A stretch of 64,000 nucleotides of DNA from a virus. The stretch covers positions 110,695 to 174,694 of the IMG/VR virus record IMGVR_UViG_3300017917_003388, one strand, 5' to 3'. Of the stretch, positions 40,835 through 63,900 are shown one piece after another. Made by a program: the position numbers and the translations under genes. Below the pieces are notes generated by a model. The model saw only the letters and a list, made by a program, of their open reading frames with translations. It was not told the DNA's origin and did no database searches. Each line of letters begins with the position of its first letter. Positions within the stretch are counted from its first letter, which is position 1.

Positions 40835-41353
40835 TTAAAATATTAAATATTGTTTCCAATCTTCTTTATTTTTATATACTCTACTTATGAAATAGAAAGG
40901 ATTAGGTCTAAATGGTTTAATATTTAATTTCATACCTGCTTGTTCTGGTGTTTTGTCACCTTTCTTTAAATTACATGGAAAACAACATGTTACTAGATTT
41001 TCCCATGTATTTAATCCTCCTTTAGATCTAGGATCTATGTGGTCTAAAGTTAGATTTTTAGTTGATCCACAATAAGCACATTTATTATCGTCTCGTTTAA
41101 ATATATTTTCTCTTGAAAGTACAATTTTTCTATGAGGAACATAAACATATTTAGTTAAACGAATAACTGAAGGTTTATGGTATTTGTTGATACTAGTATC
41201 TAAAGTTATTCCTGTATCTTCTATTATTTCTGCTTTACCTTTCCAAACTAATTTAAAAGCTTGTTTGAAAGTAGTAACATTTATTGGTAGAAAATCAGCA
41301 TTTAAAACTAATATCATTGAGTTTTTTTTATTATAACTCTTTAAATTTTTCAT
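40835..41353 (-). CDS. HNH endonuclease (McrA-like family)
   Basis: LVLNADF.P, PSVIRL, RDDNKCAYCG, TLDHI.PRSKGG..TWENLVTCC..CN..KG. Confidence 0.9.
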   Translation of the reverse strand: MKNLKSYNKKNSMILVLNADFLPINVTTFKQAFKLVWKGKAEIIEDTGITLDTSINKYHKPSVIRLTKYVYVPHRKIVLSRENIFKRDDNKCAYCGSTKNLTLDHIDPRSKGGLNTWENLVTCCFPCNLKKGDKTPEQAGMKLNIKPFRPNPFYFISRVYKNKEDWKQYLIF

Positions 41354-43923: not shown

Positions 43924-45531
43924 TTAAATCTCTATACTTTCAATTTCTTGAATAAGAGCTTTATAACCTTTACAATTAGCTTCAATTAGGTTAAAGATTT
44001 TATCTGACCAACCCGCAATCTGTAATACATTAAGTGATTTATCAAAAACTGATTTTCCACTAGTTTGTTTTATATCAACACAAATTGTATTACAATGTGG
44101 GTTTACTTTTTTAAATTCTTTAAACAATGTTTGGAACGAACCTAATCCAGCATCAGATGAATGATCCCATCCTCCACTACCTCCAGAACCTATAACCATG
44201 TCTGAAAATATTACTAGATTATCAACTCTGGTTTTTTCTTTAATACATCTATCTAAAAATATATAAAGTCCATTTTCAGTTCCTCCACCACATTTCACTC
44301 CTTCATTAAATGAATTTTTGTTAAATTCAAGTAAACCTTTTTTTCTATCAATTGGTATTTGGATTAATTTATCACCAAATAAACCCATATATACATTTCT
44401 TTGAGACCATGTTAACATGGAACCAAATAAATTACCAATCATAGCTGTTGTGGTTTTAGAAAAAGCAGATACTTTAGAACTTCCACCACCATCTCCTCTA
44501 ACAGAACCAGAATGGTCAATTAGTACAGCTGTTGTACCTTCAAGAGCTGGGATATTTTCAACAGAAAATTCTAATGCTTGTTCAAGAGCTGCTAATACTT
44601 TATCAACTAATGTATTTGTAGATGTAGATTCAAAAGTAATAGTTTTAGATCTAGATGAACCAGTATGTTTTAGTTTTTCGATTTCTTCATATGCTGTAGC
44701 AAATCTAAATGGTAATAATCTAGAATTGAGAACTTTATCTTTATTAGTCAAATGTGAAATAGCTTTATCAACTTGATCAGGAGCGGTTTCAATTATATTT
44801 CTAAGATTTCTCAATAGATTCATAATTGGTGCATCACCATCCAAAACTTCAGTAATAGCTGCTGCTTTTACTTCGGTTACATCTAAATTTTGTGATTTAG
44901 CAACTTGACCTGCTTTGGATAATTGCTTTTCCATAATTTTGGTAGAATATAATCCTTCCAATGATTCACCAGCAATTAATCTTTTAAAAGCTTCAAAGTT
45001 TTGTTTGGTAGGTTTAGGATGTACTAAGTTTACCAAATCAACAAGTGAAATCTCTTTTTTAGACATTTTATATTTGTCAATAAGATAAGGATCCATAGAT
45101 TCTAGTTTTTTCTTAAATCCACGTCTCATAGCATTAGCTATTTTTTTATTACCTTTTGAAAAATAATAAGCTAAAATCTCTGACATATCATCAGGACGAA
45201 CTGATACTTTCTTGTAAAAACGAGAAGCATATTCTTTTCCTGACAAACGTGGTGCTAATTCACCGGCTAAAAGATGAGTTACAGATCTCATATTAGCATC
45301 ATTTCTCAAATATATAGCTAACTTAGCTACAAAGTCTTCACTTACCTTATTTGCAGCATTTTTAATACGATTAACCACTTCGTTTTCTGATTCATAATAT
45401 GAACCTTGTAAGAATGTAGTTAAACATGTTGCTACAAGTTCTTCTTTTTCACTTAATTGATAAGCTTTTTCCCCCATTTCATTTACTGTTGTTGGAACAG
45501 TAGGAGTTTTAGATTTATTGTACTTTGACAT
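43924..45531 (-). CDS. rsr: Ro60/TROVE-domain RNA-binding protein (TROVE + vWA)
   Basis: N.MG.KAY, AIYLR...MRS, DKYK...SLVDLVNLVHPKP, LLRNLRNI, SRLLPFRF.TAY, vWA MIDAS IDHSGS, FSD, IAGWSDKIF. Confidence 0.92.
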   Translation of the reverse strand: MSKYNKSKTPTVPTTVNEMGEKAYQLSEKEELVATCLTTFLQGSYYESENEVVNRIKNAANKVSEDFVAKLAIYLRNDANMRSVTHLLAGELAPRLSGKEYASRFYKKVSVRPDDMSEILAYYFSKGNKKIANAMRRGFKKKLESMDPYLIDKYKMSKKEISLVDLVNLVHPKPTKQNFEAFKRLIAGESLEGLYSTKIMEKQLSKAGQVAKSQNLDVTEVKAAAITEVLDGDAPIMNLLRNLRNIIETAPDQVDKAISHLTNKDKVLNSRLLPFRFATAYEEIEKLKHTGSSRSKTITFESTSTNTLVDKVLAALEQALEFSVENIPALEGTTAVLIDHSGSVRGDGGGSSKVSAFSKTTTAMIGNLFGSMLTWSQRNVYMGLFGDKLIQIPIDRKKGLLEFNKNSFNEGVKCGGGTENGLYIFLDRCIKEKTRVDNLVIFSDMVIGSGGSGGWDHSSDAGLGSFQTLFKEFKKVNPHCNTICVDIKQTSGKSVFDKSLNVLQIAGWSDKIFNLIEANCKGYKALIQEIESIEI

Positions 45532-45570
45532 ATAACTTGGTTTTTAAAATTAATTAAACAAATTTAGAAT

Positions 45571-45616
45571 AAAAAAGGGAGAAACATTAATTATTTATTT
45601 AACTAATATTTCTCCC
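45571..45616 (-). terminator. Intrinsic terminator between Y-like RNA array and ro60
   Basis: GGGAGAAATATTAGTT-loop-AATTAATGTTTCTCCC + TTTTTT, ~40 nt before ro60 ATG. Confidence 0.8.
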
Positions 45617-45629
45617 AATTTAAAATTAA

Positions 45630-45772
45630 TTGATAGAGAATATTATAAAAGAGGTTTGTGTTTGACTATTTGGAAGATAGTTGCTTTTACCATTTAGCTA
45701 ATTTTTCCAATGCGGAAAAATATTGGATTCGAACCAATAATACGAAGTAACTCTTTTAATTACTACTATCAA
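45630..45772 (-). ncRNA. Y-like RNA 1: scaffold + circularly permuted tRNA-Gly(UCC) mimic
   Basis: TTGATAG/CTATCAA and AAAAGAG/CTCTTTT stems, GTAGTAAT and GTTACTTCG motifs; T arm, closed acceptor, D arm, CTTCCAA loop. Confidence 0.8.
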
Positions 45773-45781
45773 ATATTTTTA

Positions 45782-45868
45782 AACAAGAGAAAAAATAGAA
45801 TTGAGTGTTTGTTTGATTAATTGTCCAAAAATTAGTATACGAAGTAACTCAACTCATTACTACTTGTT
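45782..45868 (-). ncRNA. Y-like RNA 2: scaffold + single 7-nt-loop hairpin
   Basis: AACAAG/CTTGTT, GAGTTGAG/CTCAATTC compensatory stem, same motifs. Confidence 0.75.
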
Positions 45869-45879
45869 AAAATCTTAAA

Positions 45880-46010
45880 AAAAATAAGAGAAAAGATAAA
45901 AGAGTATATTTGAATTATCGACAGGGATCGAACCTGCAACTCATTTCTGAAAAGGAAATTGTGCTACCAATTGCACTACGAAGTAACTCTTTTGATTACT
46001 ACTTATTTTT
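45880..46010 (-). ncRNA. Y-like RNA 3: scaffold + linear D-anticodon(UUU)-T tRNA mimic
   Basis: Same scaffold; TAGTGCAATTGGTAGCAC, ATTTC-CTTTTCA-GAAAT, GCAGG-TTCGATC-CCTGT. Confidence 0.8.
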
Positions 46011-46035
46011 ATTTTTATTAATTGAATATATAAAT

Positions 46036-46100
46036 AAAGAACGTTTTTTTCTTAATTTCTTGATATTGTAAATATAAGATTAAAGATTTTGAAATCCTAA
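46036..46100 (-). promoter_or_regulatory. Promoter + boxA-like cassette (identical copy at 60316..60380)
   Basis: TTAG-N20-TATATTTA then CGTTCTTT; 65-bp exact repeat. Confidence 0.75.
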
Positions 46101-46138
46101 TTTTAATATCTTTTTTTAAAAAAAAATTTATTAACTAG

Positions 46139-46213
46139 TACTCCCGACGGGGCTCGAACCCGCAATTTCTACCTTGAAAGGGTAGCGGCTTAAACCAATT
46201 TGCCCACAGGAGC
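46139..46213 (-). tRNA. tRNA-Glu(UUC)
   Basis: CTACC-CTTTCAA-GGTAG. Confidence 0.9.
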
Positions 46214-46216
46214 GTA

Positions 46217-46384
46217 AAATTTAAAGAGAAACAAATAAAAGAGTATTTTTCTAAAAACGCGTGTCTACCAATTCCACCACCCCATAATTTGTTATCAATT
46301 AAGTTATGGGGGAAGGATTCGAACCTCCAATGTACGTGCTCCTAATGCAAGCGAAGTAACTCTTTTGATTACTACTTTAAATTT
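46217..46384 (-). ncRNA. Y-like RNA 4: scaffold + permuted tRNA-Leu-derived mimic
   Basis: 10-bp closing stem; T arm GGAGG-TTCGAAT-CCTTC, closed CCCATAA/TTATGGG acceptor, D arm identical to tRNA-Leu at 52184. Confidence 0.8.
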
Positions 46385-46388
46385 AAAG

Positions 46389-46464
46389 TTGCGGGGGTGA
46401 GACTCGAACTCACGTTATTTGGCTTATGAGACCAAGCTGGCAACCACCTCCAGACTACCCCACA
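46389..46464 (-). tRNA. tRNA-Met(CAU)
   Basis: TGTGGGG/CCCCGCA-A, loop CTCATAA. Confidence 0.82.
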
Positions 46465-46496: not shown

Positions 46497-46558
46497 AAAG
46501 AACGTATTTTCTTTTTTTCTTTATTGTAAATATAGGATTAAAGATCTTGTAATCCTAA
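46497..46558 (-). promoter_or_regulatory. Promoter + boxA-like element
   Basis: TTAGGATTACAAGATCTTTAATCCTATATTTA ... CGTTCTTT. Confidence 0.7.
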
Positions 46559-51439: not shown

Positions 51440-51600
51440 TTATTTTTTTTCTTTATTGTAAATATAAGATTAAAGATTTTGAAATCCCAATTCTTTATTC
51501 AAATCTAATGTTACAGTAAGATAACCAGTCAAGATAATATTTGTTTCTACTATTTAATACATGTGTAGTAAAATAGCATGTCAAATAATTATTTAACTAG

Positions 51601-52776: not shown

Positions 52777-52838
52777 GGGGTTTTGTTTTTCTTGTTGATG
52801 TAAATATAAGATTAAAGATCTTGAAATCCTAACAATCT

Positions 52839-53453: not shown

Positions 53454-53599
53454 TTTTCTTTTTTTCTTTATTGTAAATATAAAATTTAAGATTTTGAAAT
53501 CCTAATTTCTTAAAAAGAATGTGAGTTAATTGGGTTTTTTGTGGGTGGCTTTGTCACAGTATATATTTTATATACGCAAAAAGAACGTGGAAGGACGGA

Positions 53600-56294: not shown

Positions 56295-56358
56295 TTTGTT
56301 ATTTTTTTAGGTTATTCAAATATAAGATTAAAGATTTTGAAATCCTAAAAAATAATTT

Positions 56359-58212: not shown

Positions 58213-58428
58213 TTATGAAATGACAACAACACATTTTGTATCATCATCTTCATCTTCAGATATTTTATCCATTGAATGATATGAGCTATATTCTACATAT
58301 GCTGTATCAACATCTGTAATATCTGAAGCTACATTTGTTTTCCAATAATCTCCATAATTATATGAAAATTTTACTTCCATATCTGGGTCAAAATCTGATA
58401 AAAGTTGTTGTAATTCTAATACTTTCAT
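58213..58428 (-). CDS. Small acidic phage protein
   Basis: MKV.EL..LL..FDPD.EV..SYNYGDYW. Confidence 0.6.
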   Translation of the reverse strand: MKVLELQQLLSDFDPDMEVKFSYNYGDYWKTNVASDITDVDTAYVEYSSYHSMDKISEDEDDDTKCVVVIS

Positions 58429-58462: not shown

Positions 58463-58580
58463 TAGTCAGGACAGGATTCGAACCTGTACATGGGCAGGCA
58501 GTTTCTCCTACAAGGATTTGGGCTTATACCTTAGCCCTCATTTACATCCACCACTGCGTTACCAATTTCGCCACCTGACT
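58463..58580 (-). ncRNA. tRNA-like RNA with anticodon arm replaced by a structured insert
   Basis: AGTCAGG/CCTGACT-A acceptor, D and T arms intact, ~67-nt middle. Confidence 0.75.
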
Positions 58581-60315: not shown

Positions 60316-60380
60316 AAAGAACGTTTTTTTCTTAATTTCTTGATATTGTAAATATAAGATTAAAGATTTTGAAATCCTAA
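60316..60380 (-). promoter_or_regulatory. Promoter + boxA-like cassette (copy of 46036..46100)
   Basis: Exact 65-bp repeat; CGTTCTTTGAAA. Confidence 0.75.
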
Positions 60381-63786: not shown

Positions 63787-63900
63787 TAGTCAGGACAGGA
63801 TTCGAACCTATACAGTCTCAAGAGTTGACATTGCTTGGTGCACCAAGGAGACCTCCGGCATTTTACTCTAGTAGCGTCTTACCAATTCCGCCACCTGACT
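63787..63900 (-). ncRNA. Second tRNA-like RNA with expanded middle (paralog of 58463..58580)
   Basis: Same AGTCAGG/CCTGACT-A acceptor, D and T arms, different ~62-nt insert. Confidence 0.75.

Follow-up and report, generated by a model that had tools for sequence, protein, structure and literature searches.

A phage Ro60 gene with four upstream putative Y RNAs that share a handle and carry different tRNA-like cargoes

Why should a phage place four look-alike RNA elements directly upstream of a Ro60 gene, each of them enclosing a different tRNA-like part? We address this question in the final 64 kb (64,000 nt, positions 110,695 to 174,694; hereafter the window, whose own numbering is used throughout) of IMG/VR virus record IMGVR_UViG_3300017917_003388, a complete 174,694-bp record with terminal repeats. 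The phage genome is AT-rich and encodes a large terminase and baseplate wedge proteins, and ARAGORN finds 25 tRNA genes within the window. The four elements are built on a common scaffold, which we call the handle, and each holds a variable part, its cargo. What the tRNA-like domain of bacterial Y RNAs is for has been an unanswered question since its discovery more than ten years ago, and phage arrays such as this one represent a natural experiment, with the same handle on many different tRNA parts in hundreds of phages.

Four elements upstream of a phage Ro60 gene

Judged from its sequence and predicted fold, the 535-aa open reading frame (ORF) downstream of the elements is a Ro60/Rsr orthologue, with a TROVE ring and a C-terminal vWA domain that bears a MIDAS (metal ion-dependent adhesion site). 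It contains a Pfam TROVE domain (1e-14), is matched over its full length (residues 1-530) by PHROG 850, 'RNA-binding protein', and is similar to the Ro60 of Thermus phage phiLo (9KOP) at 3e-17 in phmmer. The MIDAS residues D339, S341, G342, S343, T418, S443 and D444 (DxSGS..T..SD) are invariant among 15 relatives. An AlphaFold model with a predicted local distance difference test (pLDDT) of 77 gives full-length Foldseek matches to phiLo Ro60 (9KOP), Xenopus Ro (1YVP) and Deinococcus Rsr (2NVO), at E values from 3e-15 to 3e-10; its C-terminal third also matches vWA domains. By Ro60, the closest isolates are the crAss-like gut phages cr111_1 (56% identity) and csAssE-Sib (50%).

The initial annotation, made from the letters and ORFs of the window, had placed four same-strand elements directly upstream of a TROVE/vWA gene, and this description holds: besides the gene being a true Ro60 by the above evidence, all four elements carry GUAGUAAU-N8-UUACUUCG on the minus strand, which is that of the Ro60 ORF, and lie 99-853 nt upstream of its start (45531). 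The pattern GTAGTAAT-N6-10-TTACTTCG has four matches in the window, all minus (Table 1), and none in 100 shuffles; no further copy of the handle motif was found in the remainder of the 174,694-bp genome. R1, a covariance model from an alignment (A2) of 8 short handle relatives, recovers exactly the four elements with E values from 2e-14 to 4e-7, and a broader covariance model, R2, returns the same four only across the genome of about 175 kb.

Each element is laid out as P1, GUAGUAAU, P2, UUACUUCG, cargo, P2', 3-6 nt, UUUCUC and P1'. In all four, as previously annotated, pairing is retained while the sequence changes: that of P1 is unique to each copy, and P2 of copy 2 reads GAGUUGAG/CUCAAUUC against AAAAGAG/CUCUUUU in the others, both of which pair.

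The handle covaries and is linked to TROVE genes

An exact-motif scan of IMG/VR (more than 117 stretches) yielded 56 instances, the window's four included, in which the full handle is present and P1 and P2 are complementary. A TROVE gene is also present in about 20 of the few-kb IMG/VR stretches that we fetched. The handle contigs whose fetched few-kb locus has no TROVE gene are either small fragments or have TROVE elsewhere on the contig, as do three of the five larger ones; among the fairly complete handle-bearing records that we checked, none is without TROVE.

We then turned the comparison around, with 80 TROVE loci sampled by protein similarity alone and no use of the RNA in their choice. 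The initial annotation had proposed a covariance search of TROVE neighbourhoods, and had named lack of enrichment beside TROVE genes as an outcome that would speak against it. R2 finds at least one copy in 75 of the 80 loci, and all 205 matches (205/205) are on the TROVE strand; kinship among the loci, many of which are from near-identical gut phages, inflates these counts, but the direction of the linkage is unambiguous. Typically, a locus has three copies in tandem, at most about 520 nt upstream of the gene, and some arrays in this sample lie kilobases downstream of it. Among the first 120 exact-motif matches in cellular genomes, a TROVE gene accompanies none and only two pass the handle filter, both doubtfully: these matches are chance background, although diverged bacterial copies may exist. 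Hundreds of phages show the same pairing of Ro60 and handle RNA, among them crAss-like phages that abound in the human gut.

To describe the structure we used an alignment (A4) of 100 model matches from 42 sources, namely 41 phage loci and this window. P1/P2 cells are paired in 90.3% of cases; the figure is 59% for shuffles and 37-54% for slid partners. Double-sided changes number 415 against 126 in shuffles. The helices thus covary, and both measures indicate that selection acts at the RNA level.

Covariation extends beyond P1 and P2. The closing P1 pair (column 7/203) is G-C in 86 cases and A-U in 14; it is followed by U8, which is invariant and unpaired across the alignment, then by column 9/202 (A of GUAG, U of UCUC), with 82 A-U and 18 G-C and no exception, and by column 10/201, with 99 G-C and one U-A. 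As these columns are unpaired in the model, the alignment was not fitted to the GUAG/UCUC pairing. Copies of the GUAG...UCUC and GUGG...UCCC types coexist within single loci or phages. P1 is therefore extended, with GUAGUAA facing UUUCUC, as G-C, bulged U, A-U, G-C, U.U, A-U, A-U. Here the initial annotation has to be corrected, since it took these two strings for invariant loop motifs; they instead pair with each other as a bulged helix across the 100 relatives. The broad hallmark of Y RNAs, an end stem with a conserved bulged helix, is thus found in this family, P1 and P2 covarying and compensation being perfect at G7-C203, A9-U202 and G10-C201. A hairpin GUAGUAA:UUACUUC, with P2 as its loop, was considered and rejected as the main fold: it leaves 14 A.C, 8 C.A and 6 A.A combinations uncompensated, whereas pairing with UUUCUC is always compensated. 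It is possible as a minor alternative conformer in most copies.

UUACUUCG is near-invariant and has no conserved partner; it is likely to be single-stranded and to make a protein or tertiary contact. The handle is now defined well enough for the design of binding mutants, which could target the bulged U, the invariant UUACUUCG and the two base pairs that compensate each other's changes. Papers on human vault RNA 1-2 contain the octamer UUACUUCG too, and Rfam Vault scores 12 bits on RNA 4; this likeness is probably a coincidence. Against Rfam as a whole the four copies give only partial tRNA matches, the weak ones to Vault, adapt33 and HPnc0260 being noise.

Cargoes, transcription units and possible roles

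The cargoes bear out the earlier description of tRNA parts in different topologies, interchangeable on a shared scaffold within a tRNA island. RNA 1 begins with a T arm, after which come an acceptor stem closed by a 4-nt loop, a D arm and, with UCC, an anticodon arm; it amounts to a tRNA in circular permutation whose variable-loop position is where the handle attaches. RNA 2 has only a 6-bp hairpin with a 7-nt loop, similar to an anticodon stem-loop. RNA 3 keeps the normal order, in which the D arm precedes an anticodon arm with UUU and an unusual C37, and the T arm comes last; its acceptor is reduced to 3 bp (UCG/CGA) that run into UUACUUCG. RNA 4 consists of a small hairpin resembling a variable arm, a T arm, a closed acceptor hairpin and a Leu-type D arm, and has no anticodon arm. 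The D-loop GG and UUCGAnn T loop present in RNAs 1, 3 and 4 indicate that the tRNA elbow is kept. ARAGORN calls none of the four elements as a tRNA, and all four lack the combination of a 7-bp acceptor and free 5' and 3' ends expected of a functional one. A 22-base stretch in the D arm region of RNA 4 is shared with the phage's tRNA-Leu(UAA); since no other region matches, we rejected the idea that the cargoes are recent copies of the phage's own tRNAs.

Orthologues of RNA 1 in six other phage loci conserve the T and D arms and vary in anticodon (UCC, GCA, UAA, GAA, UAU). Across the 100 family members, 37 bear a hairpin only, about 28 a normal-order body and about 20 a permuted body. Of the 100 cargoes, ARAGORN takes 17 for whole tRNAs; their identities number at least 12 and show no excess of known nuclease targets. 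Two handle cargoes (L068:1486-1618 and L023:1602-1733) are read as UCA tRNAs ('SeC', opal-suppressor-like). In cr111_1 (L246, 2889-3020) and csAssE-Sib (L247, 3638-3768 and 3784-3915), GenBank annotates tRNA-Gln, tRNA-Tyr and tRNA-Lys inside handle RNAs that lie directly upstream of the Ro60 gene; their acceptor mismatches suggest that they may be mimics and not working tRNAs. Several published phage 'tRNA genes' are enclosed by handles of this kind and may be something other than ordinary tRNAs, which is of consequence for annotation.

The handle itself is circularly permuted at L024:2180-2297 and at about 6860-6960 of L108 (minus). There P2' and AUUCUC come first, P1 is capped by a GAAA tetraloop, GUAGUAAU, P2 and UUACUUCG follow, and the RNA ends form a 7-8-bp acceptor-like stem ending in ACCA, so that the cargo looks like an acceptor minihelix. 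The window also has a pair of paralogous tRNA-like genes of 114-118 nt without a handle (58463-58580 and 63787-63900, minus). Both combine a Leu-type D arm and a normal T arm with the acceptor AGUCAGG/CCUGACU, and about 60 nt stand in place of the anticodon and variable region; Rfam tRNA scores them at 44 and 33 bits, and ARAGORN misses them.

Table 1. Features of the Ro60 locus and its surroundings, in window coordinates
Feature	Position	Strand	Pattern match	R1 match	Evidence and remarks
Handle RNA 1	45630..45772	minus	45743-45766	45630-45772, 48.9 bits	R2 70.4 bits; partial Rfam tRNA match 45637-45707
Handle RNA 2	45781..45869	minus	45840-45863	45781-45869, 75.9 bits	fold; alignment A2
Handle RNA 3	45880..46010	minus	45979-46002	45882-46008, 52.7 bits	Rfam tRNA 41.2 bits, model positions 5-66 only
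Handle RNA 4	46217..46384	minus	46352-46375	46220-46381, 43.7 bits	R2 64.3 bits; P1 of 10 bp
Ro60/Rsr orthologue (predicted), 535 aa	43924..45531	minus			TROVE HEAT-repeat ring and vWA domain with MIDAS
Intrinsic terminator	45577..45616	minus			terminator scan; 17-pair hairpin and UUUUUUAUU T-run; between RNA 1 and Ro60 start
Promoter-like motif TTAGGATTTCAAAATCTTTAATC, 23 nt	46078..46100	minus			ahead of RNAs 3-2-1
Promoter-like motif TTAGGATTTCAAAATCTTTAATC, 23 nt	46536..46558	minus			ahead of tRNA-Met, RNA 4 and tRNA-Glu
tRNA-Glu(UUC)	46138..46213	minus			ARAGORN, Rfam; starts a few bases after RNA 4 end
tRNA-Met(CAU)	46388..46464	minus			ARAGORN, Rfam; ends a few bases before RNA 4
HNH endonuclease ORF	40835-41353	minus			Pfam HNH_5, 5e-15; edge of tRNA array

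RNAs 3, 2 and 1 are in tandem, separated by AU-rich spacers of 8-11 nt, and end at an intrinsic terminator ahead of the Ro60 start (Table 1). Two other loci (L007 and L108) show a like layout of array, hairpin with T-run and TROVE gene. The terminator, together with the arrays found downstream of TROVE genes, rules out a Ro60 mRNA leader and argues for free-standing RNAs. The 23-nt motif TTAGGATTTCAAAATCTTTAATC has eight copies in the window, all minus, against 0.03 expected. Apart from the two in Table 1 they lie at 51468-51490, 52810-52832, 53483-53505, 56326-56348, 58397-58419 and 60358-60380; the motif contains a short inverted repeat, and a TATATTTACAAT-like sequence comes next. As far as can be told from sequence, the motif probably serves the phage as a promoter or regulator site for the units of tRNAs and small genes that it precedes.

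The comparative data make it very likely that the four RNAs are partners of Ro60. We regard as probable, by analogy with known Y RNAs, the full scheme in which the handle would bind Ro60 and the tRNA-like cargo would engage proteins that recognize tRNA. The RNAs would be co-transcribed with the tRNA island as two units, each behind a copy of the 23-nt motif: one with tRNA-Met, RNA 4 and tRNA-Glu, the other with RNAs 3-2-1 and ended by the terminator. Ordinary tRNA processing, with cuts in the AU-rich spacers, would free the RNAs, whose 5' and 3' ends form P1; past the bulged U, P1 continues into the GUAGUAA/UUUCUC helix, and P2 follows. We expect the bulged helix and the single-stranded UUACUUCG beyond P2 to lie against the outside of the Ro60 ring, where the bulged helix of animal Y RNAs is found, and the cargo with its tRNA elbow, present in three of the four RNAs, to recruit host or phage proteins that recognize tRNA. 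In this way a single Ro60 could hold several partners or display several shapes of tRNA.

Several observations weigh against this scheme, besides the kinship among TROVE loci. The Rfam YrlA model (RF02553) gives no match at E<=10 on the window copies, whether on 1.1 kb or 181 nt, and its search of the whole genome returns only tandem tRNAs at no more than 24 bits, short of the gathering threshold of 69 bits; Rfam Y_RNA (RF00019) likewise has no match on the copies at E<=10. The initial annotation had called for this comparison with Rfam. It had also found the canonical GNCGAA motif not to be evident, and GNCGAA(N)G is indeed absent from the four copies, which read (A/U)(A/U)(A/U)GUAGUAAU near the 5' end. 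UUACUUCG could also pair with GUAGUAA, where changes are uncompensated. Finally, of the 17 cargoes read as whole tRNAs at least one, the tRNA-His in L024, is the sole gene found for its anticodon in the examined stretch of its phage, so that some members of the family may have a working tRNA within the handle.

The last point leads to the possibility that the duplex of leader and trailer is a processing or stability clamp, caging tRNAs or their fragments for regulated maturation or exonuclease protection, with Ro60 an unbound neighbor. Whole-tRNA cargoes would fit, as would the plain labels tRNA-Gln, tRNA-Tyr and tRNA-Lys that GenBank gives to such crAss-like cargoes, and the YrlA of M. smegmatis is cut by RNase P and receives CCA (PMC4201824). 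However, no window cargo can mature into a tRNA: RNA 2 lacks an acceptor, that of RNA 3 spans just 3 bp and those of RNAs 1 and 4 are closed. Nor would a clamp need an invariant bulged helix and a UUACUUCG kept from AT-rich to GC-rich phages, or be tied so widely and on one strand to TROVE; we hold this explanation to be quite improbable. Even further from the evidence is a repeated DNA element (a recombination site, mobile repeat or transcription signal) with incidental RNA-like pairing. Tandem intergenic copies among tRNA genes, with an HNH endonuclease gene nearby, would suit such an element, yet compensatory changes keep two helices and the bulged helix as the sequence drifts, the strand bias is absolute and the cargoes are oriented tRNA parts, all of which makes it extremely unlikely.

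Another proposal concerns function and is compatible with Ro60 binding: the RNAs may serve in counter-defence as decoys or sensors for host nucleases that cut tRNA (PrrC, RloC or VapC-type), with Ro60 stabilizing or recycling them. It would account for the position of the RNAs inside a phage tRNA island, for the Lys-type UUU anticodon loop of RNA 3 and for the 7-nt anticodon-like loops of RNAs 1 and 2, and the changing anticodon of RNA 1 orthologues on conserved T and D arms could be a diversifying display. Furthermore, bacterial rsr-yrlBA belongs to an RNA-repair operon induced by damaged tRNAs (PMC7790460). On the other hand, a scan of neighboring ORFs turned up no RNA ligase, kinase-phosphatase or RtcB, RNA 4 and YrlA-type members have no anticodon arm at all, and 37 of the 100 members have nothing but a short hairpin. 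The cargo anticodons, diverse as they are and variable between orthologues, indicate no particular nuclease target. We consider this function unlikely. Bolder still, and in our view equally doubtful, is the idea that the Ro60/Y-RNA particle is a plug-in platform of the phage, in which the handle would be fused to any tRNA part (permuted body, normal body, anticodon hairpin, acceptor minihelix, even a working tRNA) and, by means of the array, one Ro60 would survey, protect or decoy the tRNA pool against host defences that target tRNA. If true, this would be a counter-defence principle of a new kind and would explain why Y RNAs have a tRNA-like domain.

Comparison with YrlA and other Y RNAs

How does Ro60 partnership of the four RNAs, which we favor, relate to what is known of Y RNAs? 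YrlA is a tRNA-mimicking Y RNA of bacterial Rsr loci and 22 phages (Chen et al. 2014, PMC4201824). The YrlA model, run as a positive control, finds elements in the phages CcrColossus, Xanthomonas Olaya, Rhizobium RHph_TM61 and Streptomyces Quantum at 30-50 bits, and these sit upstream of TROVE. One Xanthomonas and one Rhizobium element are matched below threshold by both YrlA and R2. On CcrColossus the YrlA match aligns via the T and D arms and the stem pairs do not fit.

Phages of Caulobacter, Xanthomonas, Rhizobium and Bacillus have a handle of the UUACUUCG...YCUC type upstream of TROVE, in which a CGAA- or GUAG-type motif replaces GUAGUAAU. The 5' motif, the motif after P2 and the 3' motif read GUUGCGAA, UUACUUCG and AYUAUCUC in the Rhizobium phage; GGCGUAG, UACUUCG and GUUCCCC in the Caulobacter phage; GGUGUAG, UUACUUCG and GUUCCCC in the Xanthomonas phage; GAAGCGGA, UUACUUCA and UAUCUC in Bacillus phage G; and GUGGUGAU, UUACUUCG and UUAUCCC in csAssE-Sib. 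In the Rhizobium elements the layout, P1-GUUGCGAA-P2-UUACUUCG...AUCUC-P1', has GUUGCGAA beside the same UUACUUCG handle, which implies that GCGAA and GUAAU occupy the same position. With this common architecture, phage YrlA-like handles form a continuum, and the window handle stands at its AT-rich end. On these motif comparisons, the handle would work like YrlA and is very probably related to it although it fails the formal motif and Rfam tests. The 'new Y-RNA class' of the initial annotation stands insofar as GNCGAA and an Rfam YrlA match are both lacking, and does not stand as a separate class, given this continuity; the elements are apparently a diverged, undescribed branch of YrlA-type Y RNAs. 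The handle consensus, the mixture of permuted, normal-order and hairpin cargoes on one handle and the size of the family were not found in the literature that could be searched, and searches with the motif strings returned unrelated top-ranked results (for example, vault RNA and primer sequences).

With the animal Y RNAs (RF00019) the window RNAs share paired ends, a conserved helix with a single bulge and several paralogues with different bodies; in the animal RNAs, Ro60 recognizes a helix from which one nucleotide bulges (PMC4201824, PMC12135203). The animal helix is unrelated, however (GGUCCGA/UUGACC, bulged C), and holds no tRNA parts, and the Rfam family does not match here. The closest solved protein is the Ro60 of phage phiLo (PDB 9KOP, 9L5Y; template modelling (TM) scores 0.65/0.73), also a phage Ro60 ribonucleoprotein with partner RNAs encoded upstream: it binds two of these, Yrl1 and Yrl2 (PMC12135203). 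Those RNAs were selected for having CGAA within an internal bulge, and no tRNA-like cargo or array is described for them (PMC12135203). A passage of the same paper credits the Y RNA-like RNAs of CcrColossus and Bacillus phage G to Chen et al. 2014 (PMC12135203).

YrlA, with YrlB, is bound by Rsr in Salmonella and M. smegmatis (PMC4201824), and the window RNAs resemble it in several ways. The Ro60 gene lies within a few hundred bases on the same strand, inside the 4 kb used as a criterion for YrlA, and the paired ends close a stem of two helices that has an imperfect but conserved part. YrlA has YUAY after the stem (Chen et al., PMC4201824), and the window RNAs have UUAC after P2. RNAs 1 and 4 show the order T arm, closed acceptor, D arm, to which RNA 4 adds a V hairpin; RNA 2, being a hairpin only, and RNA 3, in normal tRNA order, do not. 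Furthermore, phage elements with the same UUACUUCG handle are matched by the YrlA model below threshold. The differences are that GNCGAA(N)G is replaced here by NNNGUAGUAAU, and that the array of four puts a normal-order tRNA body and a plain hairpin on the one handle as well.

RNA 3, in its order of D-loop features, anticodon-like arm and T arm, resembles Yrn1 of Deinococcus radiodurans (RYPER: Rsr, PNPase; PMC4201824). Yrn1 is likewise a modular Y RNA with a Ro60-binding stem and an effector-binding body; here, the handle would be the binding part. Permuted (YrlA) and normal-order (Yrn1) tRNA-like layouts have thus both been described already, and Chen et al. regarded them as independent inventions (2014, PMC4201824). 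In the present phage, by contrast, the YrlA-like and Yrn1-like layouts are found on one identical handle at one locus.

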